Shown piece by piece: positions 42,681 to 58,633 of a stretch of DNA of 64,000 nt (position 1 is the stretch's first letter; each line of letters starts with the position of its first letter). The translations under genes were made by a program, and so were the position numbers. Where the stretch lies: NCBI GenBank assembly GCA_963772455.1, contig CAVYXJ010000013.1:32001-96000 (forward strand). Reading direction: 5' to 3'. The notes under the pieces were generated by a model. The model saw nothing but the letters and a program-made list of their open reading frames with translations. It did no database searches and had not been told where the DNA came from. This stretch comes from Candidatus Bathyarchaeota archaeon. Lineage in GTDB: Archaea; Thermoproteota; Bathyarchaeia; Bathyarchaeales; Bathycorpusculaceae.

Positions 42681-43319
42681 TTACATGGCTCTCAAATAAG
42701 CAATAAGCCTTTCCCAATCGCCTGTCTTCTTCATATCTTTATTTTTGAGTAAGTCCATAATCGCCTTCGGGCTATACAATCCGCCATCTTTGGGGTAAAT
42801 ACGCCTTGAAACAAGAGTGAATGATACATATCCTTTATTTCCTAATTTTTCATCAGTTACTTCATGCGTGTAACCCCTTTTTTCTGATAAGATAACCACT
42901 GCAAAACGTAAATCTGGCGACAATTTTTTCAGTTCATCAAAATTTTCCTTTAATATTTCTGACTGATTAGCAACAGCATTATTCTTAATTACAATCACCA
43001 AGTTGACATCCTTGGGAGAATATTCTTTTTGATCTGGATTTATCGTAGATTTGAGTAAGAATAAATCATTCTTTATGTTTGACCCTTCGAGTTTTATTTT
43101 TGGATTAAAAGTTAGATTAAACCCTCTTCTCAAAAGATGTTCTCGAATCACTACTTCTGTTGGTACTCCACTTTTTTTCTGCGCGGTTTTTTCTCTCTCT
43201 TGGTGAATAAATTCTTCTGCAACTTCCATTAGCATCTGATATTCTTCGTCTTTTTTCGTTAACAGAGGTGCTTTGAGTTCATCGTAATGAGACATGGCTG
43301 ATACATCAATTTTTGTCAT
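42681..43319 (-). CDS. Hypothetical protein, possible degenerate PD-(D/E)XK nuclease fold
   Basis: TEVVIREHL...NDLFLLK...VIVIKNN layout. Confidence 0.55.
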   Translation of the reverse strand: MTKIDVSAMSHYDELKAPLLTKKDEEYQMLMEVAEEFIHQEREKTAQKKSGVPTEVVIREHLLRRGFNLTFNPKIKLEGSNIKNDLFLLKSTINPDQKEYSPKDVNLVIVIKNNAVANQSEILKENFDELKKLSPDLRFAVVILSEKRGYTHEVTDEKLGNKGYVSFTLVSRRIYPKDGGLYSPKAIMDLLKNKDMKKTGDWERLIAYLRAM

Positions 43320-43479
43320 TAAATAACATGTTGTTTTTGTTTTCGTTTACTGTTGCAATAAATGCCAAAGGGTATAGCTCATTTTTTTGAGGATAACTAC
43401 TGATAGAACAACATTTAAAAAAAAGTTTGTTGTTGTTCTTTCAGTTATAGATCGTCTTTATTGGCAGTACAAGAACGAT

Positions 43480-43876
43480 CTCCACGTGGGTATCGTGGCA
43501 GTAGATGGGACAAGCAACGTAAATATGGTTCATTATTCGAACGTCAAAATCGTAATGTAAATACCAAAATAGGTAAAATTGCTCGTATTTTTCAGTTTAC
43601 CAGAATAATTTTACTCGATTTTCAACGAAAAAACGTATTAAAAAGTCTGAAAATTTAGGCAATCATACTTTTTTATATGAAGGCGAAAATACAATTCGAT
43701 AACATACTTTACTTATCGCAAAAACCCTCTTTGAAAACAACCGATCAACCCAACCTATGAACGCAACACAAAAAAACTTACTTTGTTAAAGTTAAGTTTA
43801 TCAAGCTTTTAGTTTAAAATTTAGTTTATGCTTTTTCCTAAACGTTGGGTTTGTTTTGAGAGATGGGTTTTCGATG
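43480..43876. repeat. Conserved array-distal block, copy 1 (direct repeat of 53090-53482)
   Basis: Starts cgtgggtatcgtggcag; highly similar from ~43610 (ttttactcgattttcaacgaaaaaac...) into the gene tail ISQNKPNV. Confidence 0.92.
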
Positions 43877-45013
43877 CATTCTAAAAAGCAAAAGAGAGAC
43901 CAAGATAACCGTTAAAACAACAACCACAACAATAATGAGGTAAAAAATTGTTATCCCTATGAATGCTGGAAAAACAAGTGGATGATGGTCAATGTTGTTT
44001 TGGTCAATAACGTGTGTTCCGTTACCAGAATAGTCACTCCAGTAATTACCCTCTTTTCCATTATCCCACGAAACAATATCAGTTCCGTTAACTGAGGTTG
44101 GATTTTTATTCAAATAAGTTGTCTCAACCAAGGCATTTTGACCATTACTGACAAAGTTATTGCTATAAACAACGTTTCCTAACCCAATGTATGCATCGCC
44201 AGAGACTACAAAATTCTCAAGTTTAATCCCAATAGTGTTCCCGTCAACTTCATTATTATGAAAATCTGTGTTGCTAACGCCACGCCCAAAATTGGCCCCA
44301 AAGATACTGTTGTCTATTATCTTATTATCATGGATTGAATAAGGACCAGTCCACTCGAGAACCAATCCTTCCTCATTATTCATAATTGTATTATCGTTGA
44401 CAATCACGTATCGTGAGTAAATGCTAACCCCTTGACTGTTGTGGCTGATTGTGTTTCCTGAAATCACACCTGTAGAAGCCATGCCGTTTGATGAGATTCC
44501 AATTCCTCCTTCATTATTGATAATGGTGTTGTCTTTTATCTCAAAGTTTTCACTTCTTTCAACCATAATTGCTTGGTTATTATCGGTAATGATGTTCCCT
44601 ATTATTTTGCAGTTAGAAGGAATTGCTTGTTGGGCATAATTTGCGACAGATATGGCTGTTTCACAGTTTCTTATCGTGAACCCAGAGATGGTTACATCTG
44701 GGGCTCCAACCTTAATTGTTGCACCGGCAAAAGGGTATTTTTGACCCTGAATAATAGTTTTCTGAGGAGATTCTCCTGTTAAGGAAATTGATTTGCCTAT
44801 TGTTAGCTCTCCAACCTGAAATGTTCCGCTCCTAACATAAACGGTATCTCCTGTATTGGCATTGTTTATAGCCCCTTGGATTGTTTGGTAATTATCTGGA
44901 ACAGTTATTGCTCTCGGTAGGACATAAGTCCTTAGAATTACTATTGTAAAAACGGATGCCGCTATGACAAGAGCAATAAGCAAAACAGCAGAACTCTTTC
45001 TGATAGTTCCCAT
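43838..45013 (-). CDS. Surface protein cassette: NosD/right-handed beta-helix with C-terminal TM
   Basis: ITVPDNYQTIQGAI, parallel beta-helix repeats, WDNGKEGNYWSDY, D..PL, TM, tail RKPISQNKPNV. Confidence 0.88.
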   Translation of the reverse strand: MGTIRKSSAVLLIALVIAASVFTIVILRTYVLPRAITVPDNYQTIQGAINNANTGDTVYVRSGTFQVGELTIGKSISLTGESPQKTIIQGQKYPFAGATIKVGAPDVTISGFTIRNCETAISVANYAQQAIPSNCKIIGNIITDNNQAIMVERSENFEIKDNTIINNEGGIGISSNGMASTGVISGNTISHNSQGVSIYSRYVIVNDNTIMNNEEGLVLEWTGPYSIHDNKIIDNSIFGANFGRGVSNTDFHNNEVDGNTIGIKLENFVVSGDAYIGLGNVVYSNNFVSNGQNALVETTYLNKNPTSVNGTDIVSWDNGKEGNYWSDYSGNGTHVIDQNNIDHHPLVFPAFIGITIFYLIIVVVVVLTVILVSLLLFRMHRKPISQNKPNV

Positions 45014-45037
45014 AGTTAGCTGATAGACCCGCTTTAA

Positions 45038-45137
45038 ATAAAAGACTTCTCGTACAAGACTCTTGACTAAGAGCAGTCAAACTTCCTTTACTGAACTGTG
45101 TTTGTGTTTTTTGTGGTAGACCAACAAACCAGCAGAT
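45038..45137. repeat. Cassette junction repeat J1 (promoter, two palindromes, upstream gene tail)
   Basis: ataaaagacttctcGTACAagactcTTGACtaagagcaGTCAAacttccTTTACtg...tgtgttttttgtggtagaccaacaaaccagc; near-identical to 56156-56251. Confidence 0.9.
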
Positions 45138-46210
45138 GCCACCAAGATAAAAGCAACGACTGAAACAGCGGTTATAATGACCAAGTTTCGAGAGGAGTCT
45201 AATCCTGATTTAGTTTCATAAGATGGAGCAATAAGCGGATAATGGTCTATATTTGTAGCATCAATAACATAAGCTGTATCTCCGATGCCGTCCCAGTTAG
45301 CATCTGAACCATTATAGCCTTGCCAGTAATTGCCTTCTTTGCCATTATCCCAAGAAGTATCTTGAACTGTCACATCCAAACTTACAGGGTTATTTTTACC
45401 TAAGAAGGTATTGTGAAAAAAAGTATTATTTGTAGCTAAACCAATAATTAAATTGGTACCATAACGTCCAACACTAATTTTGTTATTATCAAAAATATTG
45501 TTGCTGCTATTATAAATTTGAAGTGCACTGTTGAGTTTTCCTTCCGTGTCAATAGTATTTTCAAAGATTATATTCTGGTTAGAAGAATTCAAGTAAAAGT
45601 AAGACATTTCATTTAAACCGATTGTGTTCTGGTCAGCCAATTCCAGATTAAGGGTGTAAATATTATTTTTGAGGAGAGTATTATAAGCGCCTACTAGTTC
45701 AACGCGCCCGTTCCAAGTGTTATTAGATATATTACAGTTAGACCCACTTATTGACAACGTCTTCCCGCCTGTTATGTTATTGTCGCATATTTGGGTTCTA
45801 TCGCCTTCTACCGTGATGTCTCCGAACGGCGAGAGGATAATTGTTAAGTTTACAAGCCGCACATCATTGGCTTTAATGTTAATTGAATCCGTATGACCAT
45901 AAAAAGGGGTAGTTATAATCCATTCCACACCATATGCAGGGAACAAATTTATTACAGTCTTCTTGGCGTTTTCTCCGATAATCCAGAGGGATTTGTCAAT
46001 TATCAATGTTTGATTAATTGGTCCATCATATTCTCCCTCTTTAACAAATATCGTATCCCCATTAGTTGCATTTCCGATTGCCGATGCAATCGTTGGATAA
46101 TCGTCTGGAACAATGATAGTTTTGTTTTCAGCTTTGACTGGCAAAAATGTGATTATGGATGATGCTGTTAGGAAGACGAGAACAAGTGCTAAAGCTAAAG
46201 CTTTACTCAT
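45077..46210 (-). CDS. Surface protein cassette: NosD/beta-helix with C-terminal TM
   Basis: Signal MSKALAL...VKA, IIVPDDYPTI, WDNGKEGNYW, tail GLLVYHKKHKH. Confidence 0.88.
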   Translation of the reverse strand: MSKALALALVLVFLTASSIITFLPVKAENKTIIVPDDYPTIASAIGNATNGDTIFVKEGEYDGPINQTLIIDKSLWIIGENAKKTVINLFPAYGVEWIITTPFYGHTDSINIKANDVRLVNLTIILSPFGDITVEGDRTQICDNNITGGKTLSISGSNCNISNNTWNGRVELVGAYNTLLKNNIYTLNLELADQNTIGLNEMSYFYLNSSNQNIIFENTIDTEGKLNSALQIYNSSNNIFDNNKISVGRYGTNLIIGLATNNTFFHNTFLGKNNPVSLDVTVQDTSWDNGKEGNYWQGYNGSDANWDGIGDTAYVIDATNIDHYPLIAPSYETKSGLDSSRNLVIITAVSVVAFILVASAGLLVYHKKHKHSSVKEV

Positions 46211-46240
46211 TGCCACCACTTCATTGTTGGTTGGTTTGCA

Positions 46241-46299
46241 GATAAAAGACTTCTCGTACAAGACTCTGGACTAAAATTAGTTAAGAATTCTGGACTAAG
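46241..46299. repeat. Cassette junction repeat J2
   Basis: gataaaagacttctcGTACAagactcTGGAC + GTTAAgaattcTGGAC, 24 bp apart. Confidence 0.88.
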
Positions 46300-46398
46300 C
46301 TGAATTGCGGATATTATTAAAATAGTTTACCTTCATCGAGAACATTGCCGTTTAGTTTAATTGAGGCAATGAAACTTGAATTTATGACTTCTAACGTT

Positions 46399-47199
46399 TT
46401 ATTTCCTGTTTTTCCTTAGGGCAACCAAAAGAACAACAGCAATTGCTACAAGTCCAATCCCAATGGCACCAATATAATAGGTTGAAAAATTAGTTGTTAC
46501 TGAGAAATTTGTTACAGCTTCAGCTCTTCCCTTTTCAGTCACCACTATCATTAAGATTTCATAGTTACCCTCAGAGATTGATGTTAAAGTTGTATTTCCT
46601 GTGAGGGGATATTCATTTGATGTATCAGGTCCATAGTGTGGGTAATCTGCATTTTCATACAAATAGTAAGATGCCTTCTCCATGTTTCCATTAACAGTAA
46701 AGATTAGAGGTATCTCTCCAGTGTAGGTTTGGTTTGTTGGAGATAAAATTTTGATGCTTGTAACTTGATAGCTGGAATTTACTGTAAAGTCTCTTGATGT
46801 GTACATGCCGTTTGCGTAAGCTTCCACTGTGTGGTTACCGTCAGATAAGTTCTCGAGAATAGCTTTGCCAATTACTGTGTAGCCAACTCTTCCTGGACCA
46901 AAGTTCGAAGGGCTTTTGATTGTGAGATTTCCAATATATTGCAATGGCTCTCCATCTACACTGTAGGCTATGTTGTTAACTTTTTGTGATTCAGCGAATT
47001 GATAGACATTCACTTCAAGATTGACAGTAGAATTCTCATATCTATTTGGAGGGTAAGGGGGAGAGATAATCTTCATAGAAGGTATTGGAATTTCATCAAA
47101 AAGGGAACCTTCTGTCACTAAGAGTTGAGAGGTAGCCCCTACTAATAGCAGCATTAGCAAAATAGTAGCTACATTATAGGTCTGTCTCATGTTTACCAA
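46399..47199 (-). CDS. Surface protein cassette: tandem Ig-like domains with TM
   Basis: IISP..NxxY repeats, YSVDG, NLSDGNH, C-terminal TM + RKNRK. Confidence 0.82.
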   Translation of the reverse strand: MVNMRQTYNVATILLMLLLVGATSQLLVTEGSLFDEIPIPSMKIISPPYPPNRYENSTVNLEVNVYQFAESQKVNNIAYSVDGEPLQYIGNLTIKSPSNFGPGRVGYTVIGKAILENLSDGNHTVEAYANGMYTSRDFTVNSSYQVTSIKILSPTNQTYTGEIPLIFTVNGNMEKASYYLYENADYPHYGPDTSNEYPLTGNTTLTSISEGNYEILMIVVTEKGRAEAVTNFSVTTNFSTYYIGAIGIGLVAIAVVLLVALRKNRK

Positions 47200-47220
47200 G
47201 GTCTGCTAATAGATTTCTAC

Positions 47221-47326
47221 TTAAGAGTTTTTTCGTAAAGGTTTCTTGACTAACTCTGAAAACTGCTCGGTCAAACTTTCTTTACTAAGTTGTGTTTGTG
47301 TTTTTTGTGGTAGACCAACAAACCAG
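47221..47326. repeat. Cassette junction repeat J3
   Basis: GTAAAggtttcTTGAC (47235) + GTCAAactttcTTTAC (47270) + LLVYHKKHKH tail DNA. Confidence 0.85.
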
Positions 47327-48218
47327 CAACTACCAAGGCTACTACTGCAACAGAAATAGAGGCAAAAGGAACAATTGGGAAAGGCAGGGTTTCTTCCTCA
47401 GGGACATTGAAAACAACAACAGCGCCATGTACAGACGGTGGTTCTTCTTCTCGGGAGAAAGCAATTGTCATTCTTCCAGCTTTACCATCAATCAGAGTAT
47501 TGTTTAAGGGCGTCAATGTTCCACGGGTATCTATAGAATAAGCTTGCAACTCAAAGAGGTCGGATTCAATCTGAATGCCGTATTTGTTGGGAGAATATCC
47601 ATACCAAGAGTACAGTGGGTATGAAATATTGCTGCATCCATAGCGCCCGTATAAAGGCAGTGTAAATGAATAGTCTCCAAGGTAAGCATAAGATGTTGGG
47701 GTTTTTGAAATCGGAAGCTCATAATGAATTGCCACAACAAAGTCACGCAAAACAGGTGAAACAGTCCAATTGATTTCCTGCAAGTTGGTGTCAAAAATAT
47801 GGAAATATCCACGAGAATCTATTTGTGATTCGACTTCTTCACCGTTTAACCAAACAGAGATGTGAGTCGTGTTAAAAGGAATTGGATAGTGAGCTTCCAA
47901 CGTATCTTGTGTAACGATAACTGTAACATAAGGTGATGAATCTTTTATCAAACCCATGCCAGTATTTTCTGCGATATAGCTATCTCCTAAGGCGTAAACT
48001 GTGTGCATTTTGTATTCTGCATCAATCTTCACCCATAAGGCTTCATCAACTCGGAAGATTGTGGCGTTGATGTTAGTTTCAGGCACGTTGACCTTTGGCG
48101 GGATTCCATAAGTGGGGTATGCTTTTGCAGTATTGACCGTTTGTAGTTCTCCAAAAGTAACCATGTATAATGTCAGGAGTAAGAAAATGACAAGTAGTTT
48201 GGCTGTGTTCTTGTTCAT
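47271..48218 (-). CDS. Surface protein cassette with C-terminal TM
   Basis: Signal peptide, beta-rich body, tail GLLVYHKKHKHNLVKKV. Confidence 0.82.
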   Translation of the reverse strand: MNKNTAKLLVIFLLLTLYMVTFGELQTVNTAKAYPTYGIPPKVNVPETNINATIFRVDEALWVKIDAEYKMHTVYALGDSYIAENTGMGLIKDSSPYVTVIVTQDTLEAHYPIPFNTTHISVWLNGEEVESQIDSRGYFHIFDTNLQEINWTVSPVLRDFVVAIHYELPISKTPTSYAYLGDYSFTLPLYGRYGCSNISYPLYSWYGYSPNKYGIQIESDLFELQAYSIDTRGTLTPLNNTLIDGKAGRMTIAFSREEEPPSVHGAVVVFNVPEEETLPFPIVPFASISVAVVALVVAGLLVYHKKHKHNLVKKV

Positions 48219-48252
48219 TTCAATTCCTACCAGTATAGGGCTGTTTTAGTGA

Positions 48253-48287
48253 TTAAAGATTTTTCCAAGTAAAGAATTCTGGACAAA
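48253..48287. repeat. Cassette junction repeat J4 (single palindrome)
   Basis: GTAAAgaattcTGGAC at 48269-48284 beside the TATA of the 48218 gene. Confidence 0.7.
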
Positions 48288-48373
48288 CAAAAAGTAGTCC
48301 TTCCAGCCTCGCCGCCATTCCTATAAAGGTGTGACCGGACAAGGGACACGTTAAATTCGTGGAGGTCAACAAA

Positions 48374-49494
48374 ATGATAACACAAGTAAATACAACGATT
48401 GAATTAAAACCAGAATTAGTCAATTTAGCTTGTGAAATAGGTTTAAATCCGTCTAAAATCTGTGAAAATGCCCTTAAATCGGCAATAAGGTGCCTTCAAG
48501 GCGTAAATTTGAATAAGTGTTTGGTGGACGAGCCGGGATTTGAACCCGGGACCTCCACGATGCCAACAGGGACAGAAACAAGCTCTTTTTCAGAAAAAAA
48601 GGCTGAATTAATCGTTAAACCTGAAACCCTCGTCACATTTGCGGAATTCATGACTGTAAACATGCGCCTTGAAAAGAGAACGGTTCGGGAAACAAAATCC
48701 AATGTTCATCGGTATTTAGAAAGTTCAAAATATGTCGTAAACTATGAAACTGTCTCGAAATTCCTGAAATCATACATGACCAAATCCTCAAGGACGTATA
48801 ACGCTCAGCTAACAAGTCTTGCGAAGATTTGTTAGAGATTTCTTGCATGCACCTGAAAGCATTTTAGATTTTAAGATGGCTCCAATTGATTTGTTAGGCA
48901 AAAACATACAGCTACCAACAAAAGAACAATTGAAGAAAGGTTTTGACGCTTTAACCGAAGAAGGCGAGAAAGCATTGTATTTGTTTACTTTGTCAACAGG
49001 TCTGCGCCGAAGCGAAATCATGGGGCTGACAAAAGACAAAATAGACTTCAAAATGCAGAAGCGTTATTCCCTTGCATTTCACACGCGTTAAACGATCAGG
49101 AATTACATTTTACAACTCAGAAACCGAAGAATACCTAAACAAATACTTGTCAGCACGACCAGACGATACCAAAGTTTTTAGGCTGTGTCCAAAGAAATGC
49201 AAGTTGATGTGGCGGAAAATCAGCGAAGCAGCAGGAATTAAGATTTCACCTCAAATTCTACGAGTTTGGTTTTCAAACGAACTGGGGGAACAATTCGTTC
49301 CTGATCGATTTGTTGACATTTTCCAAGGGCGTGCACCAAGATCTGTTTTCGCGAAGAGCTACACTGCAAAAGGAATTGAACGGTTAAAAGCAATTTATGA
49401 AAAAGCTAACTTAACTATTACTTGTCAAGACGCAAATGCCTTTGTTTTTTCAATAGCTCATCCGTTAAGCTTTCGGCATGACTTTTCCTCTTGA
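48374..49494 (+). CDS. SSV-type tyrosine integrase: int(N) RHH-like domain + att + int(C); two frameshifts (~48818, ~49052)
   Basis: TGLRRSEI (Arg), RVKRSG (Lys), PQILRVWF, FQGRAPRSVFAKSYT (Tyr); reading frame runs through the tRNA-Ala 3' copy. Confidence 0.88.
48522..48567 (-). repeat. att site: copy of the 3' half of tRNA-Ala(GGC)
   Basis: tggtggacgagccgggatttgaacccgggacctccacgatgccaac matches 58500-58545 with one mismatch and ends just after the anticodon loop. Confidence 0.95.
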
Positions 49495-50025
49495 ATCCAT
49501 CAAATCACCGTCTTGAAGCCCACGTGTTTCTTCTGCTAATTTGTACGCATGTCTGAGCAAAACAAAGCTCAAAGCACGTTTGACTTCTTTTTCATCTCTG
49601 GCAAATTCATTGCCAAAATCTATTTCGTCAGCCGTAGTCAATTCTTCTTCATGTTTTCTCATATATCTTAATTCTAAATTAATGAATTTCTGAACTTCTT
49701 TAGGCAGTTCTTTAGCAAGTTCTTTGACCTTTTCTGTGATCAATTTTTCTGAAATCGTAAACAATTTGGCGTTCTCACGTTTGAGTGTAATAGACATTCT
49801 TTTTGGCGTTTACTTTGTTTTGGCAGTTTATCGATGTATATTCCATCCATTTCTTCTTTGAGATAACGGTAGAGTTGTATTCGCGTCCCATGGGCTTTTT
49901 ACATTTTTGTCGTTAACGTGTGTTGCGAAGGTCAAGAAGTTTTTTTGACCTGATATTGGAGTTCCGTCAGGCATCAAATCAAGAATCTTTTCGATGTATT
50001 TTTCAGAATGTCTTCGGTTTACCAT
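49465..50025 (-). CDS. Element hypothetical protein(s), probably one frameshifted DNA-binding protein
   Basis: ORFs 49828-50025 and 49465-49797 bridged by alternative-frame IQLYRYLKEEMDGIYIDK. Confidence 0.5.
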
Positions 50026-50126
50026 ATTTCACCATCTTTAGTTTGGATATGCGAGCAAATAACCATAATAAAAACGATGTATATAAGTCATTCTGTCAAG
50101 TCAGCAATTGACATCATGCAAAAAAC

Positions 50127-50271
50127 ATGGAGATAAAAAAATTGGTAAAAATTCCAAGAATTGAATGCCCTCAGTGCCTCTATAATTGGCGTCCCGAGGG
50201 TAGAACCTTTGCCAAAACGTTGTCCAAATTGTGGACATAGGCTATCGCAGGAAAGTGAGGTGAAACAATGA
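50127..50271 (+). CDS. Small zinc-ribbon protein (one frameshift near 50195)
   Basis: Corrected translation MEIKKLVKIPRIECPQCLYNWRPRVEPLPKRCPNCGHRLSQESEVKQ; stop overlaps next ATG. Confidence 0.65.
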
Positions 50272-50684
50272 ACGAGAAAGAAATAGCAAAAATGATTGCA
50301 GAAAGCGAAGTCTTAGAGCCTTACCTGAGAAAAATGCCGCCAATCCCACAATACCAACTCGATTCGCAACAAGCTATTGAACTCTACAGAAAAGACGTAG
50401 ACGCGATGGAAGAAAACAATTTTCGAATCGCCGTTTTCCAATGTGCCTATGACATAGCAATCTGGCTTAGTGAAGGTGGAGGTTCGTTTACGTCTTTGCA
50501 ATGCATGACTCCTGAGTCTCACAAAAAAACTTTCAGTCAAATCAACTTTGGTCAACTCGAAACAAACGCTCAAGGAATAAGACAGGAAATTAAAAGATTG
50601 AAAATGGCTAAACCATTAATTTTAAAACTAATTGATGCAAACGCTAAGGCACAATGGGATAAAACTCAGTACAATCACTGTTGA
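50268..50684 (+). CDS. Element hypothetical protein
   Basis: 138 aa, GAGGTGA RBS. Confidence 0.75.
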   Translation: MNEKEIAKMIAESEVLEPYLRKMPPIPQYQLDSQQAIELYRKDVDAMEENNFRIAVFQCAYDIAIWLSEGGGSFTSLQCMTPESHKKTFSQINFGQLETNAQGIRQEIKRLKMAKPLILKLIDANAKAQWDKTQYNHC

Positions 50685-50711
50685 AACGCCAAATCGAATC
50701 ATCCACCCGAG

Positions 50712-51158
50712 TTGAATACGATTGGATGTAAGCATGAGTTAAAAACTAAAGGTCAGGAAGCCGTTCTTGACTTGGCTATACTTCAATACGAAAAGATTCT
50801 TGAAGTCTACAATATAGAGGCATCTGACAGAAAGAAATCCCCCATCGTTAAAGACATCATCAACAACATAACTTCATTGATTAAACAGGCAGAAAAAATA
50901 CACCCAATCATAGTTAAAGCTAATCTGAAAGCACAAAAAGCTTTGGCAAATGGCATTTCGCCTGATCTTAAAACTTGTAACTCTTTTATCGATGCAACTG
51001 CCAAATTCTCTGAATTGAGCCACGAATATTTCACTCAAAAGGGCAAACTCGATTTCTACACAGACCAATCTTCAAACGATCTTGTCTTTCCAACTTTAAC
51101 CAACAACGACACATCTGCTGAATATGAGATGAAGCGACAATGGAGGAAATTTGCCTAA
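50712..51158 (+). CDS. Element hypothetical helical protein
   Basis: 148-aa ORF in operon orientation. Confidence 0.65.
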   Translation: MNTIGCKHELKTKGQEAVLDLAILQYEKILEVYNIEASDRKKSPIVKDIINNITSLIKQAEKIHPIIVKANLKAQKALANGISPDLKTCNSFIDATAKFSELSHEYFTQKGKLDFYTDQSSNDLVFPTLTNNDTSAEYEMKRQWRKFA

Positions 51159-51407
51159 ACAATCGGAAGCCGCATGCTCCACAAAAGGCTCAGACAGCTC
51201 GTTTTCCGGATGCGCGTACGTAAACGGAATTTTCCGCAAAGCAGGGCTTAATCTTTGCCCTTGATTCCCCTAACGCGCGGGGCTCCTGCTTGGAGGTTTT
51301 ATGTCATCGCTGTCGGGCTCTGCGGAAAAGCATGTGGCTTTCAAACGAAGTTGCGTTTCATCAATCCCCTTTTTCATTTTTTATTATTATTAACGGAGGT
51401 GAATTAC

Positions 51408-52064
51408 ATGAATAACAAAGTAGGAAAACTCATAAAGACAATATCAATCGATAACAAGCCAGAACTTGTTCAGCATATTGAGAAACAATCGAATTTCAGC
51501 AACTACGTTCAAACACTCTTAGAGCAAGACCTTGCAAGACTTCACGCAACACAGCAACAAAAACAGACTGAAGCGAAAATAGAGCTAACAAAAGATGAAT
51601 ACCTCACATTCGAGCATTGTAAAAAATATTTCAGAGAATATGGCGGTATGACCTATGCAAAGTACTTCCATTACTTCCCTGTGCAAATAAGCTCCGACCA
51701 TCTGAATTGTTTATTGTTAGATGTTTATGATATTTGTAAAACGTATGCTCCAACAACCGCCGAATACATTAAGCATATTAGAGAAAACGATGAAGACTTT
51801 GATATCTTCTACGATAAAATAAGTCGTTATTGGCAACAAGAAAATCCAATACCTGAAGACTGGAAGAAAGAAATCATACCTGGAATGACATTGCATGAAG
51901 CACTTTCAAAGATTATACCTGAAGCTATCAAGCTAAAAGACAAAGATATTCCATTAACAATCAAACGAATCAGCGAGATAGTGGGGTTAACCTATCAGCA
52001 AACATACACACAACTAATGCCACATATCAGACCTATTCTAAAAGAGCTACAGGTTGAAGTTTAA
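51408..52064 (+). CDS. Element regulator-like protein (N-terminal RHH-like, C-terminal HTH-like)
   Basis: GGAGGTGA RBS before ATG 51408; KTISID...NFSNYVQTLL; LTIKRISEIVGLTYQQTY. Confidence 0.65.
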   Translation: MNNKVGKLIKTISIDNKPELVQHIEKQSNFSNYVQTLLEQDLARLHATQQQKQTEAKIELTKDEYLTFEHCKKYFREYGGMTYAKYFHYFPVQISSDHLNCLLLDVYDICKTYAPTTAEYIKHIRENDEDFDIFYDKISRYWQQENPIPEDWKKEIIPGMTLHEALSKIIPEAIKLKDKDIPLTIKRISEIVGLTYQQTYTQLMPHIRPILKELQVEV

Positions 52065-52882
52065 TAATAATAAAAAAAAATAAACCCTTTCTTTTTTGTT
52101 AAACTAATCGAGGCAATCTTAACCTGATGTTTCCTTAACGTTAACATGAATAGTGAAGTCAGCGTTACCGCAGTAAACAGCGTTATAATTGCTAACAATG
52201 AAAACTCTGGAACAGTGGGAGTTGGCGTTGGATTGGGAGTGGGAGAAGCAGATGAAGTTTCACCGATGGTTATTGTTTGTGTATCGCTCCAATCGCTTGT
52301 TTCACCGATAAAAGTCCATCCGCTTGGACTTGATTCAGAGTTATAGCTAATGTAGCCTATGAATGCTTTAACTTGAAAATCAATTTGGGAGTCAGGTGGT
52401 AACGTTGGACCGAACCCATTCCATCCAGCCGATGAATAGTCTCCTTTATACGAAAAAACCGAATACTCTGTTTTTAATTGGGCATCTTCTACCGTCAACA
52501 TAGCATATTCATCATAGGGGTAATACTTCTGATGCCAGTCTTTTTCAAAATGTCCCTTCCAATGAATCTCATAGTGAAGATAAACAGTCCTGTCCCCAAT
52601 CTGTTCCTTGATTGTAAAAGGGGTGAATGGCTGATTCTTTACCGAAAGTTGAATGGTTCTTGATTCAACATGCCGTCCAGCCTCGTTTATAACCTGTCCG
52701 TTGAAAGGGTTTACCGTTGAAGAAGGTGGAATATCATAAGAGGAGTCGATAAGGGTAACATTAAACTCAGGCACAGAGGGTTTAGGTATTGACTGAGCAT
52801 ATGCAGATTCAATCATTATCAGACTTGAAACTGCTAAGACAATAACAAGAAGTAACGAGAACCCTTTGCCGATACTGCCCAT
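52061..52882 (-). CDS. Surface protein, AQSIPKPSVPEF family, PEF-CTERM-like anchor
   Basis: Signal peptide, PT-rich linker, TVPEF + TM + RKH. Confidence 0.85.
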   Translation of the reverse strand: MGSIGKGFSLLLVIVLAVSSLIMIESAYAQSIPKPSVPEFNVTLIDSSYDIPPSSTVNPFNGQVINEAGRHVESRTIQLSVKNQPFTPFTIKEQIGDRTVYLHYEIHWKGHFEKDWHQKYYPYDEYAMLTVEDAQLKTEYSVFSYKGDYSSAGWNGFGPTLPPDSQIDFQVKAFIGYISYNSESSPSGWTFIGETSDWSDTQTITIGETSSASPTPNPTPTPTVPEFSLLAIITLFTAVTLTSLFMLTLRKHQVKIASISLTKKKGFIFFYYY

Positions 52883-53089
52883 ATCAAGTACTAAGAGAAT
52901 AGAAGCGATAAAAGGTTTATTCCAAAAAACTATACTATTTCAATTCTCCTAATTTGATTCGCTTTGAGAGTTGTTGTACTTTTCGAGGTTGCTTCGTTGT
53001 TGGTATCGTAAATGTTGAGAAAGCTAAAAGCTGCAAATTCCATTAGAAATAGGTTTAAGATGGAAAAACTCCATTCTTTTGCTAATGTT

Positions 53090-53482
53090 CACCGCGTGGG
53101 TATCGTGGCAGATGAATGCTGTTTCATTGAACATGTTTGCAATTATCGAAGCTAAAATTTGAAGTAAACATTGAAACAAGGTAAAATATGCCTTAATTTT
53201 CAATTTTACAGAGAATTTTTACTCGATTTTCAACGAAAAAACATATTAAAAAGTCTGAAAATTTAGGCAATTATACTTTTTTATACATAGATGAAAATGC
53301 AATTCGATAACATACTTTACTTATCGCAAACCTTCTTTGAAAACGACCGATCAACCACCCTCTGATCGCAACACAAAAAAAACTTACTTTGTTAAAGTTA
53401 AGTTTATCAAGCTTTTCATTATAAATTTAGTTTATGCTTTTTCCTAAACGTTTGGTTTGTTTTGAGAGATGGTTTTTCGATG
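53090..53482. repeat. Conserved array-distal block, copy 2
   Basis: Direct repeat of 43480-43876. Confidence 0.92.
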
Positions 53483-54388
53483 AGTTCTGTAAAACAGAAG
53501 ATAGATAATAACTATAACTAATACGACAAATACGAATGGAACTATTAAGACAAAATTGTTGTCAGATACTTGAGAAGGCGTTGGCGTAGGGGTTTGCATC
53601 GGAGTTGGTAAAGGTTTTACTGAGGGCAAAGGCAAAAACGGTTCTGTCTTAATCAAATAAATCCTTCCTGTTCGTGGATTATCGAATAAATTATATCCAA
53701 CACCCAAAACAGCGAGTGCACCATTAGATGTTTCAATTATCGAAGAAATCTCAAGAGGAGCAGTGCCATCACCACCAGTGTAGGTCAGGTTTATTATCCA
53801 TTGAGTGTTGTTATTTGAATCAGTTTTAATAAGGCTGCCTTGTTCTCCATAAACAAACCCGCTATCACTTGTTTGAACGAGAGTTGGAGCACTGCCTAAG
53901 TCTGGTACACTTGAATAATTTTGAATCCATTGGATGTTTCCTTGAGAATCTGTTTTAATTAAAGTAGGAGTGAATTCACGTGCCCCTCCGCCAATTAAAG
54001 CGGAAAACCAGCTTCCTGATAATTCATATCCTTCATCGCTTGTTTGGATAAATGTTGTTGCTCTAAAGTAACTGATGGTTTTATTCCATTGTAAATTGCC
54101 TGATGAATCAACTTTGTATAGGGTTGATGGTCTAATAGTGTACTGGTATGACCAACCCAAATTCACGAAAACGTACCCTCCATCACTTGTTTGAATTAGG
54201 TTTGAAGTTGATTCAACATTAGTGTCGCCATAAGGACCAGAATCACCGTAATCTTTTTGCCATTGTATAGTGGGAGCAGAAGTAAATGTGGTTGATTGGG
54301 CTTTCACGGTTGCAGGTTCAAGTGTAATTAAAGAAGTTAGGAACAACGCAACAAGAACCAATGCAAAACTCTTGCTTTTCTTACCCAT
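53444..54388 (-). CDS. Surface protein cassette: beta-propeller-like repeats with TM
   Basis: QTSDGGY/LIKTDS.GN.QW repeats, tail RKTISQNKPNV. Confidence 0.85.
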   Translation of the reverse strand: MGKKSKSFALVLVALFLTSLITLEPATVKAQSTTFTSAPTIQWQKDYGDSGPYGDTNVESTSNLIQTSDGGYVFVNLGWSYQYTIRPSTLYKVDSSGNLQWNKTISYFRATTFIQTSDEGYELSGSWFSALIGGGAREFTPTLIKTDSQGNIQWIQNYSSVPDLGSAPTLVQTSDSGFVYGEQGSLIKTDSNNNTQWIINLTYTGGDGTAPLEISSIIETSNGALAVLGVGYNLFDNPRTGRIYLIKTEPFLPLPSVKPLPTPMQTPTPTPSQVSDNNFVLIVPFVFVVLVIVIIYLLFYRTHRKTISQNKPNV

Positions 54389-54410
54389 AGTAAGCTGATA
54401 GAACCATTTC

Positions 54411-54446
54411 AGATAAAAGACTTCTCGTTCAAGACTCTTGACTAAG
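54411..54446. repeat. Cassette junction repeat J5
   Basis: agataaaagacttctcGTTCAagactcTTGACtaag. Confidence 0.88.
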
Positions 54447-54510
54447 CACTATTTGCGTTTTCTGTATGTATTATTTAGGCGAAGATGTCAGAGCATTCAG
54501 TAGATAAGTA

Positions 54511-55224
54511 TTAGGAATAGAAAATAACTTTGAGATATTTTTGCTCACTTTTTTTGTTCTTCAATTGCGATATAAGTGTAACAGTAATTATTGCTGCAGC
54601 AATTAGAAAAGCAACACCTATGTATAGATACAAATTATCCTTCTCCATTTGGGCAGTATAAGTTACCAAATACTCTTTAAAGTCAAAAACTTGTACGAAT
54701 CCTCCATGTAGAAAAATTGCAGTATAGTAATTGCCTGATTCTGTAGCCCTAAAAGCTACTGCTCCATTCTTCCTTGCTACATTTGATGCCTCAAAATTAG
54801 TTCCATTTTTACTTGCCCATGCCGAGAAGTCAAAACTGTTATTGTTTAACTGAATAACAACTGATTTAAAGTTGGTAAATTGTTGCTCAGAAAAAATGAA
54901 GCCAGTTACGTAAATATCTGTGTCCCACTTAGCTTCTATGCCTTGTCCTGCGTGGAGAGATATTGGTGGTAGATTGAGAAAATCAGTATTAGGTGGCTGA
55001 AATGGAGGATAATAATAGTTCCCATTTAGGTATGTGTTATTTACTGATGCTACTGGATTTGGGTAGTTTATGTTTGGAGTATCAGTTTGATAAGAACTCC
55101 TTATTGGAGCAGTATGTGGAGAAGCAAAGTTGAGAGAGATAAAAAATGCGCCCGTTAGAAGCAATATTAAGATAACTATTTTTACTATATTTCTAAGTCT
55201 GAATCTCTCTACCTTTGGCTTCAT
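54511..55224 (-). CDS. Surface protein cassette with N- and C-terminal TMs
   Basis: Start set at MKPKVER from TATA spacing. Confidence 0.75.
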   Translation of the reverse strand: MKPKVERFRLRNIVKIVILILLLTGAFFISLNFASPHTAPIRSSYQTDTPNINYPNPVASVNNTYLNGNYYYPPFQPPNTDFLNLPPISLHAGQGIEAKWDTDIYVTGFIFSEQQFTNFKSVVIQLNNNSFDFSAWASKNGTNFEASNVARKNGAVAFRATESGNYYTAIFLHGGFVQVFDFKEYLVTYTAQMEKDNLYLYIGVAFLIAAAIITVTLISQLKNKKSEQKYLKVIFYS

Positions 55225-55250
55225 ATCCATATTCTGTAAGATGTTAGTCC

Positions 55251-55350
55251 ATAAAAGCCTTGCAGTAAACAATTCTTGACTGAGATTCGTAAAATTTCCT
55301 TTACTAAGTTAAGTTTGTGTTTTTTGTGGTAGACCAACAAACCAGCAGAT
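55251..55350. repeat. Cassette junction repeat J6
   Basis: GTAAAcaattcTTGAC (55265) + GTAAAatttccTTTAC (55289) + tail DNA. Confidence 0.85.
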
Positions 55351-56130
55351 GACACCATAATAGTTCAGTAGCAGAGGAATTGTCCATAAGGGAAACTCTG
55401 GAACTGTCGGGGTGGGTGTCGATGATGTTATGGTTGGAGTTGGTGTTAAATTTGGTGAGGGTGAGGTTGAAGTGGAAGTTGGAAGAGGTTCAGGATAAAT
55501 CAATGTTGGATATGGGGAATTATCAATACTGCTTGCAAAAACGTTTGCAGTATCACTTTGGTTAATTGTCACAGTAAGCGTATTGCTCCATCCACTATCT
55601 TGACCATTAATCACGGGATAGGGAAAAAGTGGTTGTATAACCCAGCTTTGGTAGCCAATCATAGATATTACTTGAACATCAATCACTGAACCTTTAGAAA
55701 AATCTTGGTGGATAGTGAAATAGGTAAAAACAGAACTATAGTTTCTATTTAGGAAGCCCTCGTCTTCTCCGCCATAAAGATATTGCCAATATTCACCAAA
55801 GTGTCCCTTATAGCGGACATTGTAGAAGAAGTTAAGGTCACGTCTTGTACCATTGGGGTTTGTTAGTACAAACTGGTTGAAGGGTTGATTTTTGATTTTC
55901 CCTTCAATTTTTATATCGGTAATATGTCTGCTGGGAATAGTCGTTTGTTGCCCAGTATAGGGGTCTGTTTGGATTGTTGCAGTAGTATCATATGAATTAT
56001 CAACCACTTGGATAGAAAACTGCGGAACAGATGGTTTAGGAATAGTTTGAGCATTGACGGATTCTGTCAAAAATACAGAGAAGGCTAAGATAACTACAAT
56101 TAGTACTGAGAAACCCTTGATACATTCCAT
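55309..56130 (-). CDS. Surface protein cassette, AQTIPKPSVPQF family, PEF-CTERM-like (frameshift near 55363 in the TM)
   Basis: Start MECIKGF; TVPEFPLW; SAGLLVYHKKHK lies in the adjacent frame. Confidence 0.82.
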   Translation of the reverse strand: MECIKGFSVLIVVILAFSVFLTESVNAQTIPKPSVPQFSIQVVDNSYDTTATIQTDPYTGQQTTIPSRHITDIKIEGKIKNQPFNQFVLTNPNGTRRDLNFFYNVRYKGHFGEYWQYLYGGEDEGFLNRNYSSVFTYFTIHQDFSKGSVIDVQVISMIGYQSWVIQPLFPYPVINGQDSGWSNTLTVTINQSDTANVFASSIDNSPYPTLIYPEPLPTSTSTSPSPNLTPTPTITSSTPTPTVPEFPLWTIPLLLNYYGVICWFVGLPQKTQT

Positions 56131-56947
56131 GTTTAAGGTTAGGGTTGGTTTGTAGATAAAAGACTTCTCGTACAAGACTCTTGACTAAGAGCAGTAAAAC
56201 TTTCTTGACTAAGTTGTGTTTGTGTTTTTTGTGGTAGACCAACAAACCAGCTAACACCAGCGTTATTGTTAGTAGTAGCGGAATTGTCAATGAGGAAAAC
56301 TCTGGAACGGTAGGAGTTGGCGTTGAATTAGGTGAGGGTGAAGTTGAAGTGGAAGTCTCAGGTATGGTTATTGTTTGTGTTTTACTCCAACCACTTGCTT
56401 CACCTGTAAAAACCCAAGGAGCCAAAGGTAGTTGCTGGTCTCTGAAGGAATTGCCTATCAACGCTTCAACTTGAAAATCTGCTTGACTGCCTGAAGGAAT
56501 ACTCAAAATTCTTAGACTCGAATGCAAAGACTCTGCTCCCGACAAAGCGAATGAAATGATGGTACTTTGATTTCCTGAATCTTGACTTGGATATGCATCA
56601 GGACTAAAAAGCTCCTGCCAATCGGTTGAAGAATGTTCCTTCCAGCGAACATTATAGAAAAATCCAATTCCAAAGGTATCATCAACATAAGGTTGATTCT
56701 TAATAATTATCTTTACGGCACTATATTCCATATGATATCCATTATCATTAGCTTCAAACAGTCCAGTGCTGGGATTAAGAGAGTAAGTTGGTGGTTTGTC
56801 AAAAGATGGACCTATTAACTCTAAGGTGAATTGCGGAACAGATGGTTTTGGTATTGTTTGAGCATTTACAGATTCAACCATCAGTAGACTTAGACTTGAG
56901 ATAGCCATTGTTAAAATCAGAACTATTGCTAAATTCTTGCTATTCAT
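56036..56947 (-). CDS. Surface protein cassette, AQTIPKPSVPQF family, PEF-CTERM-like; usual stop lost
   Basis: TVPEFSSL + TM + LLVYHKKHKHNLVKKV, then reads through J7. Confidence 0.82.
   Translation of the reverse strand: MNSKNLAIVLILTMAISSLSLLMVESVNAQTIPKPSVPQFTLELIGPSFDKPPTYSLNPSTGLFEANDNGYHMEYSAVKIIIKNQPYVDDTFGIGFFYNVRWKEHSSTDWQELFSPDAYPSQDSGNQSTIISFALSGAESLHSSLRILSIPSGSQADFQVEALIGNSFRDQQLPLAPWVFTGEASGWSKTQTITIPETSTSTSPSPNSTPTPTVPEFSSLTIPLLLTITLVLAGLLVYHKKHKHNLVKKVLLLLVKSLVREVFYLQTNPNLKHGMYQGFLSTNCSYLSLLCIFDRIRQCSNYS
56156..56251. repeat. Cassette junction repeat J7
   Basis: GTACAagactcTTGAC (56170) + GTAAAactttcTTGAC (56194) + tail DNA. Confidence 0.9.
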
Positions 56948-58184
56948 TGGTGGTCCTTCTATGCTTGAGGTAAACTGCAGCTAAGAGTACAGGCACAAAG
57001 AATGTTAAAATTGCCAATACTGGAAACTCTGGAACGGTAGGTGTAGCTGTTGGTGACAAGGTAGGTGTTGGTTTAGGGGTTGTTGTAGGGGTTGAGGTGG
57101 GAATCGTTGGTGCTTCAGGGTTTGGTGCAGTTAAAAAGGGTGTGAAATTGACTGTACCTAAATTGAAATCATTCTTTTTATCATGGATTGTTTGGCTTAT
57201 CATTGCTGAATTGGTTGTTCCCCACCAATTATTAGTAGCATCCACATTTTCATTAGCTTCTGGAGCTAAGTGTATGTTTTCAGAGTTTCCGTAGATATTG
57301 TTGTTATTAATGCGTGGAGTAGGGTAGGCGATTATGCCAACTGTATTGTTAACTATTGTATTCTTTAGAATAATGCTATGGCTTGCCACTATTCCTTGAT
57401 AGTTATTGATGACTATGTTTTCTTCAACCCTGCAAGAAGGACCTGATTTGATCCCAACTTTGCACCCATAGACTGTATTATTAGATAGAACATAGATGTC
57501 ATGAAAACTGTTGTAAATAATGCCTATTTCTCCACCAATAACCGTGTTGTTTGAAATCGTGGAGGCATCATCGTCTGTATAAATTCCCCAATTAATGTTA
57601 TGAACTACATTGCCTGAAATCGTTGCTGAAGACTTAAAAATTGACATCGTATCCCATTCGCCAAATATTTCATTGTTCGTAATTATAGTTGAACTATATT
57701 GACAGCTTATGTATCCTGTTATTGTGTTGTCGTTTATTTTTGGGGATGTGCCATTAATTTTTATCCAGATTGATTTTAATATGGAGTTTTCTATTATGGA
57801 GCCTAATTGTGTGTTTTTGTTCCAGCTTGGGCTTGGATTCATAAATTCGATATATGATGCTCTATTATCGCCACCGTTGAAATTTACTTTTTCAGTGTTG
57901 CTGCCTTTTGCATTTATTGTGCCATTTACTAATAGGTAATGGTTGTTAAGGTTTACAGTGGCTCCAGAATCAATTGTTAATGTTGCTCCTTGACTTATGG
58001 CTACAGGACCTGCAAGATTGTATGGGCTGTTTGCTTTGGTCCAAGTTGTATCTGAGTTTATTATCATACTGTTGATGGTAGTACCGTTTTGAGCTAATCC
58101 AAAAGGTGTAGTTCCAACAATTATTAAACTCGATACAGCCATAATTAGAACAAGGAATACTGCAAAACTCTTACTTACACCCAT
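56940..58184 (-). CDS. Surface protein cassette: right-handed beta-helix, PEF-CTERM-like
   Basis: TTWTKANSPY, beta-helix repeats, DATNNWWG, TVPEFP + TM + KHRR. Confidence 0.87.
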   Translation of the reverse strand: MGVSKSFAVFLVLIMAVSSLIIVGTTPFGLAQNGTTINSMIINSDTTWTKANSPYNLAGPVAISQGATLTIDSGATVNLNNHYLLVNGTINAKGSNTEKVNFNGGDNRASYIEFMNPSPSWNKNTQLGSIIENSILKSIWIKINGTSPKINDNTITGYISCQYSSTIITNNEIFGEWDTMSIFKSSATISGNVVHNINWGIYTDDDASTISNNTVIGGEIGIIYNSFHDIYVLSNNTVYGCKVGIKSGPSCRVEENIVINNYQGIVASHSIILKNTIVNNTVGIIAYPTPRINNNNIYGNSENIHLAPEANENVDATNNWWGTTNSAMISQTIHDKKNDFNLGTVNFTPFLTAPNPEAPTIPTSTPTTTPKPTPTLSPTATPTVPEFPVLAILTFFVPVLLAAVYLKHRRTTNE

Positions 58185-58207
58185 AGTCAACTTATAGAAC
58201 TCATTTT

Positions 58208-58266
58208 AGATAAAAGACTTCTCGTAAACGTCTATTGACTAAGCCAAGTCAAGGTTTCTTAACTAA
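58208..58266. repeat. Cassette junction repeat J8
   Basis: agataaaagacttctcGTAAAcgtctaTTGAC + GTCAAggtttcTTAAC, 24 bp apart. Confidence 0.85.
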
Positions 58267-58351
58267 CAAAAGGTAGACCTTCCACCTCGCCGCCATTCCT
58301 ATAAAGGTGCATCCGGACAACAGACACGTGTAAAACGTGGAGGTCAACAAA

Positions 58352-58633
58352 ATGATAACACAAGTTAGTTCAACAATCGAGTTAAACCCTGAATTAGCGA
58401 ATTTAGCCTATGAAATGGGTTTAAATGCGTCAAAAATCTGTGAAAACGCCCTTAAATCGGCAATAAGGTGCCTTCAAGGCGTGAACTTGAATAAGTGTTT
58501 GGTGGACGAGCCGGGATTTGAACCCGCGACCTCCACGATGCCAACGTGGCGATCATGCCAGACTGATCTACTCGCCCAAATTTATCTGGCTTCTGAAAGT
58601 TACCCCGCCTCATTTAATAAGCGTTTCTTATAG
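58352..58633 (+). CDS. int(N) fragment (RHH/CcdA-like), reading antisense through tRNA-Ala
   Basis: Nearly identical to the first ~65 aa of the 48374 integrase; diverges at the att crossover. Confidence 0.8.
   Translation: MITQVSSTIELNPELANLAYEMGLNASKICENALKSAIRCLQGVNLNKCLVDEPGFEPATSTMPTWRSCQTDLLAQIYLASESYPASFNKRFL
58500..58577 (-). tRNA. tRNA-Ala(GGC), integration target
   Basis: GGGCGAG...CCACG-TTGGCAT-CGTGG...GGTTCAAATCC...CTCGTCC-ACCA. Confidence 0.95.

Follow-up and report, generated by a model that had tools for sequence, protein, structure and literature searches.

Two arrays of surface-protein genes stand between matching flanks beside a tRNA-Ala(GGC) gene in a 64,000-nucleotide stretch of a Candidatus Bathyarchaeota archaeon genome (GenBank assembly GCA_963772455.1, contig CAVYXJ010000013.1, positions 32,001 to 96,000; G000:C13:32001-96000, hereafter the window), raising the question of what brought these genes together and in what unit their content changes. 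An earlier note on this DNA had proposed an integron-like platform that collects and swaps cell-surface modules at palindromic gene junctions. Our analysis resolves the island into two related elements in tandem at the tRNA gene, each carrying surface-protein genes. We favor, with a probability of roughly 0.6, a reading that combines tandem integrative elements, a host operator at the gene junctions, and a second, internal core site for the element integrase, termed att* here.

Tandem elements at tRNA-Ala(GGC) and their rejoined integrase

The integration target is the tRNA-Ala(GGC) gene itself (58500..58577, minus strand), whose 3' 46 nt (58500-58546) form the att core. A second copy of these 46 nt, 9,978 bp from the tRNA copy (48522..48567, minus strand), marks the att junction between the tandem elements and reproduces the tRNA 3' end from the anticodon loop. 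In the window and in the congeneric genomes G074 and G090, att identity ends at the edge of the anticodon loop; att corresponds to the tRNA 3' half from that loop, as in SSV-like elements. The site is empty in the congener G011, whose alignment to the window breaks off at 58485 and picks up at 43342, so that the island consists of an old, backbone-less element (43477-48567) and a later full element (48522-58546). The later element is itself now decaying, and a decayed, cargo-only element sharing one att with a later arrival is the arrangement known from cis-mobilizable elements (CIMEs) and tandem accretion. The placement of both arrays between the same two flanks stands: the int(N)/att blocks (48307-48567 and 58285-58545) are 89% identical, and the distal blocks (43571-43899 and 53179-53505) 88% identical. 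This assembly also holds three tRNA-Ala(CGC) genes on three contigs (G000:C1:9836, C4:23682, and C20:81149).

As the earlier note had recognized, these are tRNA-Ala integrative elements with an SSV-like suicidal integrase. At both sites the N-terminal part of the integrase gene, int(N), runs into att, and att lies within the integrase open reading frame (ORF), giving the SSV-like split. The int(N) of element 2 (58352..58546, plus strand) ends inside the tRNA gene and is 88% identical to residues 1-65 of the intact homologue P0001, which matches PF00589 and PF16795 as well as, weakly, Xer models. At the junction between the elements, a full-length tyrosine integrase gene (48374..49425, plus strand) is put back together from the int(N) of element 1 and the int(C) of element 2; it is ~80% identical to intact 350-aa homologues and carries two +1 frameshifts. 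Among 112 other well-matched genes in the assembly just 3 have a frame change, and splits within one frame affect two backbone genes, so decay is a likelier source of these frameshifts than assembly noise. The integrase is likewise rejoined across att, with an open frame, in G074 (350 aa), G090 (351 aa), and G059 (346 aa, at a tRNA-Ala(CGC)-type att on a short contig); a tandem-type junction rejoins the integrase at all four loci with a near-full-length gene. More distant int(C) matches occur in G072, G038, and G067. The int(N) segments (48374-48475 and 58352-58460) also give a weak CcdA-like (ribbon-helix-helix) score, and int(N)-only stubs are found in many congeners, so a retained int(N) stub may itself encode a DNA-binding protein.

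The element backbone genes (49465..52064) include a phrog_14312 match and, at 51408-52064 on the plus strand, a gene with 63% identity to G059. Those at 50268-51158 (plus strand) and 49537-50025 (minus strand) are each broken into two ORFs in one frame, and an IPKPSVP-family gene that has no operator also lies within the backbone (52061..52882, minus strand). Searches of the backbone proteins against PHROGs, Pfam, and Atlas returned no replication protein, and viral contigs yielded no match to the integrase or to the conserved block D described below. Just outside the island, a 212-aa gene (42681-43319) is patchy in congeners and often lies beside the tRNA-Ala insertion point; it gave no family match.

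A generic cargo slot and the internal site att*

The distal block had been described as one conserved flank of about 390 bp, and its conservation is borne out by the 88% identical pair, though about 60-130 bp of it is the last gene's tail with its terminator, common to solitary genes on contigs C5, C11, and C12. The element-specific part, D, spans about 250 bp and is non-coding; D2 lies at 53085..53335 and D1, the last part of the truncated element 1, at 43477..43730 (both minus strand). D has no common open frame across 10 copies, and an Rfam search returned just the tRNA. BLAST found D in 9 of 119 other congeners; partial matches in G081 and G038, with neither att* nor a nearby tRNA, were dropped, and profile or pattern matching contributed copies in G115, G108, and G037, for a total of 12 copies including the two in the window. 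A metagenome scan for D found one locus with the gene set and positions of G074, which was not counted separately.

These copies show that the flanks are element backbone and that the slot between them is generic. Content between the conserved flanks is variable, as had been claimed, and of the 10 copies that allow measurement, 9 have att* 4.0-5.5 kb from att, and G108 has it at 2.3 kb. Surface cargo fills 4 of 12 slots (the window twice, G002, and G108), and non-surface cargo the other 8, which does not fit a platform dedicated to surface modules. The non-surface cargo includes a CBASS (cyclic oligonucleotide-based antiphage signaling system) cyclase with NucC and a type II restriction-modification (R-M) system in G104, an LmuB-like ATPase with DAC in G121, a NACHT protein in G084, a DpnII-type nuclease in G115, and an R-M pair in G109 that resembles that of G104 by its protein ends alone; G074, G037, and G059 carry small or regulatory genes. 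For G002, G108, G109, and G037, cargo was classed from hydropathy, BLAST against the proteins of the window, and resemblance of protein ends. In the surface array of G002, the tail is different, stop and start codons overlap, and a palindrome stands at the head alone. G074 repeats the overall layout with 9,905 bp from att to att (9,978 in the window), and G090 does so with 8,792 bp and without D. Together, these loci define a family, restricted to the genus, of integrative elements roughly 9-10 kb long whose split tyrosine integrase targets the tRNA-Ala anticodon loop. Each is laid out as att, int(N), about 4-5 kb of variable cargo, D ending in att*, backbone, int(C), and att.

The site att*, in which D ends, reads CCACG-N7-CGYGG, the arms of the tRNA anticodon stem around a spacer that is mostly ATACCYA. 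It is the best-conserved part of 11 aligned D copies, with the arms and ATA nearly invariant while the flanks drift, and across 401 genomes of the order its pattern matched in 9, always within this element family. Compared with the anticodon loop, the 7-bp spacer matches at 5 of 7 positions when inverted and 2 of 7 in direct orientation. In the window, att* 2 (CCACG-ATACCCA-CGCGG, 53092..53108, minus strand) is of the internal type and is followed by backbone, and att* 1 (CCACG-ATACCCA-CGTGG, 43482..43498, minus strand) is followed by a stretch of 6 tRNA-like bases that leads into host DNA. Wherever att* precedes a backbone (D2, G074, and G059; 3 of 3), it continues into YGAAC and a further, small palindrome. 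Of the nine backbone-less copies, four have att* running directly into the tRNA 3' half: the fused sequence matches the tRNA at 27 of 33 positions in G121, 20 of 33 in G002, and 19 of 33 in G108, and in G104 the fusion is seen by gapped alignment (0 of 2000 shuffles). The G108 fusion was found only after the prediction of such fusions had been written down. Two further loci bear on the site. In G059, the att stem arm of the tRNA-Ala(CGC)-type locus is CGAGG and the right arm of att* is likewise CGAGG (L035, L037), one case of possible covariation in which the two contigs appear to belong together. In G037, a locus on contig C12 (L124, about 165300-170300) carries G074-like cargo, D, and a nearly symmetric att* next to a host gene, with no adjoining tRNA or int(N).

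On these comparisons, att* is probably a second core site for the integrase; the site and its fusion products are present in the genomes, and the enzyme and the direction of the reaction are our supposition. Recombination of att* with the distal att would remove the backbone and int(C) and fix the cargo in place. The fusion product, an att* spacer followed by the distal att arm onward, could arise if a single strand were exchanged at the edge of the spacer and the DNA then replicated, an outcome in keeping with general tyrosine-recombinase chemistry. The accessible text on SSV1 places its integrase cuts at the borders of the anticodon loop (PMC8371274). Recombination between the two D/att* copies of a tandem, whether site-specific or homologous, would free a circle combining the backbone of one element with the cargo of the other; D1 and D2 have identical spacers, so that in the window this event would pair backbone 2 with array 1. 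The unit of exchange would thus be the whole cargo block, not a single gene, and the swapping envisaged in the earlier note would survive at the level of the block and not gene by gene.

Several observations weigh against this role for att*. The spacer is unlike the anticodon loop, so a standard exchange of both strands in direct orientation should work poorly, and the att*-tRNA fusions could be 5-bp microhomology deletions. In 2 of the 9 backbone-less copies, D1 and G037, just 5 of the 6 bases after att* are tRNA-like, and in G037 the symmetry of the site may explain them; G108 retains an att*-type arm, CGCGG, and not the CGTGG of the tRNA. Other deletion routes exist, since 3 of the 9 copies (G084, G109, and G115) keep the internal flank and D is absent from the int(N) stubs of G015, G095, G098, G102, and G119. 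Support for independent origins of the fusions is weak (p 0.03 against one clade in the approximately unbiased test, with no well-supported branch), and no circle or chimeric element was observed; the two distant read runs came from relatives and gave no cover over 48874-50475. The joints in those reads trace to paralogues in other organisms and were set aside.

Many of these points suit ordinary decay, in which the elements and the operator would be the same, att* would be no integrase site, and D would be an origin or another cis element with a hairpin. Under this explanation, microhomology deletion and homologous recombination between tandems would together account for loss of the backbone and turnover of the cargo. 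The spacer mismatch, the G108 arm, and the several other deletion endpoints are what it expects, and the accessible text of the relevant papers treats homologous recombination between tandem archaeal elements as an accepted route of module exchange (PMC8371274) and CIME decay and accretion as known (PMC5704250). It does not account for four copies with divergent D whose junction with the tRNA 3' half lies at one and the same point, or for a conserved motif that reproduces the stem arms flanking the crossover loop, and we consider it unlikely.

Building on att* as a second core site, the family could be a two-site, block-level cargo exchanger, a tentative extension about which we remain more doubtful than confident. 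An int(N)-cargo-D stub at tRNA-Ala would serve as a host landing pad where an incomer would regain a whole integrase; att*, by one-strand exchange with att or by att* x att* recombination, would then let it leave its new cargo and depart with the old. If so, the exchanger would resemble an integron in its action, with a 4-5 kb surface or defence block in the role of the cassette, and its 'suicidal' integrase would avoid suicide.

Junction palindromes as a probable operator, and the arrays in which they lie

The cargo of the window consists of 4 minus-strand ORFs in array 1 (43838-48218) and 5 in array 2 (53444-58184/58190), as first described. Array 1 encodes a NosD/beta-helix surface protein (43838..45013), a NosD-like beta-helix surface protein (45077..46210), a surface protein with a weak Ig-like match (46399..47190; Big_7, E 2e-4, below the cut-off), and a surface protein with a 63% identical paralogue on C24 (47271..48218). 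Array 2, also on the minus strand, encodes a surface protein with QTSD repeats (53444..54388), a membrane-anchored protein of no confident family (54511..55230), two IPKPSVP-family surface proteins (55309..56130, with a frameshifted tail, and 56036..56947, which has lost its normal stop at ~56197 through a TGA>TTA change in an operator arm), and a surface beta-helix protein with a TIGR03804 repeat and a 36% identical paralogue on C21 (56940..58184). Of the folds suggested in the earlier note, beta-helices are confirmed for 43838, 45077, and 56940, but the Ig-like call for 46399 is weak, and the 'propeller-like' 53444 found no family match. Its claim that all array proteins are membrane-anchored is upheld by a hydropathy scan, in which all 9 have 2-3 hydrophobic segments, with damaged anchors or ends in 55309 and 56036.

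The array genes are not pairwise homologous, and unrelated ectodomains are joined to common signal-peptide starts and anchor tails. For example, 43838 and 53444 are similar from -58 to +26 and again from 61 bp before the stop codon onward, with unrelated middles (the signal and tail ends of 53444 being those shared), and the same start and tail tracts occur on solitary genes of C5, C12, C16, C21, and C24. The homology tracts reach 20-140 bp into the coding ends and terminate in signal peptides, linkers, and anchors, as well as at the first palindrome. This pattern suggests that the mosaic genes arose by recombination in shared signal-peptide, anchor-tail, and promoter tracts. No orthologous gene was found in common between the window arrays and the G002 array, and no gene was found in two arrays in different order. 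Clusters of operator-led surface genes that lack this integrase also occur elsewhere in the genome (G000:C16:1-8522, C24:1-7519, and C12:103000-107200, the last after a tRNA-Gly(GCC) gene).

Nearly all array genes are separated by one junction repeat, a claim that holds for 6 of 7 internal boundaries. The repeat also stands at the head of array 2, with a degenerate copy at the head of array 1; the boundary without it is 56940/56947, where the genes overlap. Each junction is built from two GTCAA-N6-TTGAC palindromes, the second of which runs into a word resembling the transcription factor B recognition element (BRE) and a TATA box 20-31 nt before the start codon; a TATA-like box lies at this distance upstream of 7 of the 9 array genes. 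All junctions lie on the minus strand: operator pairs with BRE/TATA at 58207..58267 (head of array 2) and 46240..46302, the same following a gene tail at 45036..45098 and a tail-coding end at 56153..56216, an operator pair with TATA at 55249..55311, a proximal operator with TATA at 54411..54472, and a pair with spacing one helical turn longer, with TATA, at 47219..47292. The spacing of the palindrome pair moves in steps of approximately one helical turn (about 24, 35, and 45 bp).

An nhmmer profile of the seven island junctions has 39 matches in the genome and 1 in the reversed genome. A position weight matrix was built from the island sites alone, so that the 7 island sites score high by construction; above 22 bits it finds 30 sites in the genome and 0 in the reversed genome, 23 of them outside the island on 9 other contigs. 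Signal-peptide genes follow 14 of these 23 sites (470 of 2200 genes genome-wide), 2 sites stand before genes with C-terminal anchors, another 4 before non-surface genes (an epimerase-like gene among them), and at 3 no ORF was called. The earlier note had named the same junction upstream of many dispersed non-array genes, a plain regulon, as a finding that would refute its reading, and this is the distribution observed, with the palindrome at a fixed distance from BRE/TATA at many dispersed promoters, as in archaeal regulons. The operator pattern was found in 23 of 24 congeners drawn and in 3 of 16 genomes of other families, and in G135, 37 sites lie around the chromosome, one per operon and often between divergent surface operons. 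Across 20 loci of array-gene paralogues in relatives, there were 0 matches to this integrase and 0 tRNAs. The junction repeat is most likely a host operator over a dispersed set of mostly surface-protein genes, a view that takes its distribution as observed and its binding of a protein as presumed. Operators of this kind would regulate dispersed surface genes, and the arrays would be stacks of genes that each bring their own promoter.

A candidate for the autoregulator and regulator of this surface regulon, judged by gene context, is a 312-aa protein with several winged helix-turn-helix (wHTH) domains and an N-terminal cysteine cluster (G000:C10:75486-76424, equivalent to L049:987-1925, minus strand). 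Of 21 loci examined, 10 keep the operator pair upstream of this gene, among them those of G006, G017, and G018, genomes with just 1-2 sites; most of the remaining 11 represent its paralogue. Most congeners have two paralogues of the protein per genome, one copy keeping the upstream operator pair.

Two points tell against the operator as the whole account of the junctions. Neither G135 nor G005, both of which have many sites, yielded the candidate regulator, and several tail tracts stop sharply at the first palindrome, whose TGA is the upstream gene's stop codon. In the common tail NLVKKV, the final residues and the stop codon are supplied by the first palindrome (56194-56216, 45076-45098, and 47270-47292), and in G002 (L085) a different tail ends in a palindrome in the same frame. 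One ancestral fusion of tail and operator, spread as a module, would account for the overlap as well.

The tail overlap also lends something to the idea first put forward for this locus, that the palindromes are integron- or dif-module-like sites at which the element integrase or another tyrosine recombinase adds or reorders single surface genes. Arms of 8-9 bp around a 6-bp asymmetric spacer do resemble a tyrosine-recombinase core, several genes have the upstream stop inside the first palindrome, solitary operator-gene units occur in differing housekeeping contexts across species, and each of five genomes checked has several tyrosine recombinases. Against it stand the fixed distance to TATA and start codon, the helical steps in pair spacing, the 23 of 30 strong copies outside the island, some before conserved cytoplasmic genes, and the single site per operon in G135. 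The upstream stop falls inside the site in just 3 of 47 operator-like matches at the 20 paralogue loci in relatives, the palindromes have no similarity to the att core, none lie between the G002 array genes, no reordered gene was seen, and the other recombinase of this genome is patchy. Five junctions fold no better than shuffled sequences (z -0.1 to 1.0). We regard cassette recombination at these palindromes as highly improbable, and refrain from setting it lower because tail tracts also end at the first palindrome. A host Xer/dif system was considered as well; this genome's other recombinase is not conserved, but relatives have other tyrosine recombinases that could serve in one. A local segmental duplication, with one flank-array-flank unit copied and the copies later diverging, would explain two 88-89% identical flank pairs about 10 kb apart but is scarcely credible given that the array genes are not homologous in pairs, that int(C), backbone, and att lie between the units, and that the same layout with unrelated cargo recurs in other species, the layouts of G074 and G090 refuting it.

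Comparison with known systems

The earlier note was right that this is not a classical integron. The attC consensus is RYYYAAC...GTTRRRY, forming a stable single-strand hairpin, and such a pair was found in 0 of 8 junction stretches; no integron-integrase model is among the 6 NCBIfam matches of P0001, and the array genes have promoters of their own where cassettes would have none and be read from a single Pc. Integrons, including archaeal integrons and clusters of attC sites lacking integron-integrases (CALINs), resemble the island in having a tyrosine recombinase beside co-oriented, signal-peptide-rich genes with repeats between them, as far as the accessible text of a preprint describes them (bioRxiv 10.1101/2022.02.06.479319). 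They differ from it in that here there is no IntI and no attC, and in the own promoters, dispersed operators, and exchange by block proposed here. A tempting false lead, the archaeal surface integron, is thereby removed, and what takes its place in part is a second outcome, a genus-wide surface-protein regulon with a candidate regulator.

Archaeal operators beside BRE/TATA, of the Ptr2, TrmB-family, and EarA type, also have paired palindromes, a fixed TATA distance, helical phasing, and dispersed genes. The operator described here differs from these in sequence, its regulator is a candidate, and its first palindrome may overlap the last codons of the upstream gene. The plasmid resolution sites cer and psi offer a parallel to D, each being a conserved non-coding block of about 250 bp that ends in a recombinase-type core; in D the core comes from the tRNA anticodon-stem arms, and no accessory factor was identified. 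A search of the accessible literature returned no description of this element, att*, or the operator. What is new is the end of block D: att*, in which the tRNA anticodon-arm core recurs, conserved and inverted, around an altered 7-bp spacer.

Among the closest known counterparts are the suicidal integrases of the SSV, pTN3, and pT26-2 types, which share with this family an att within the integrase gene, a split into int(N) and int(C), a tRNA 3'-half target from the anticodon loop, and an integrase gene antiparallel to the tRNA (PMC7253208; PMC8371274). In the accessible text of a survey of 73 suicidal integrases of the Thermococcales type, there are 0 tandem integrations and such tandems are expected to be unstable (PMC7253208), in contrast to the rejoining across tandems seen here. 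The accessible text on SSV1-type integrases gives the catalytic consensus R...KxxR...Y (PMC8371274); the clade of our element has the motif QILR, and its 96 homologues divide into QxxR (51), KxxR (32), RxxR (1), and unparsed (12). A second internal att-like site is not encountered for suicidal integrases in those texts (PMC7253208; PMC8371274). This small family is thus set apart by a split integrase repeatedly rejoined by tandem integration and by an internal att-like site at which the backbone is often lost.

Finally, CIMEs and the accretion of integrative and conjugative or mobilizable elements, as presented in the accessible text of PMC5704250, share with the island a cycle of integration, decay to a cargo-only remnant, and new integration at a regenerated att. 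CIMEs retain attL and attR (PMC5704250). The remnant here instead retains int(N), complementing the next element to arrive, and in many cases its end is an internal att*/att hybrid. The elements described here suggest a concrete route by which tRNA islands may keep defence and surface cargo and shed mobility genes, and by analogy the system appears to work like CIME accretion run by a suicidal-type archaeal integrase.

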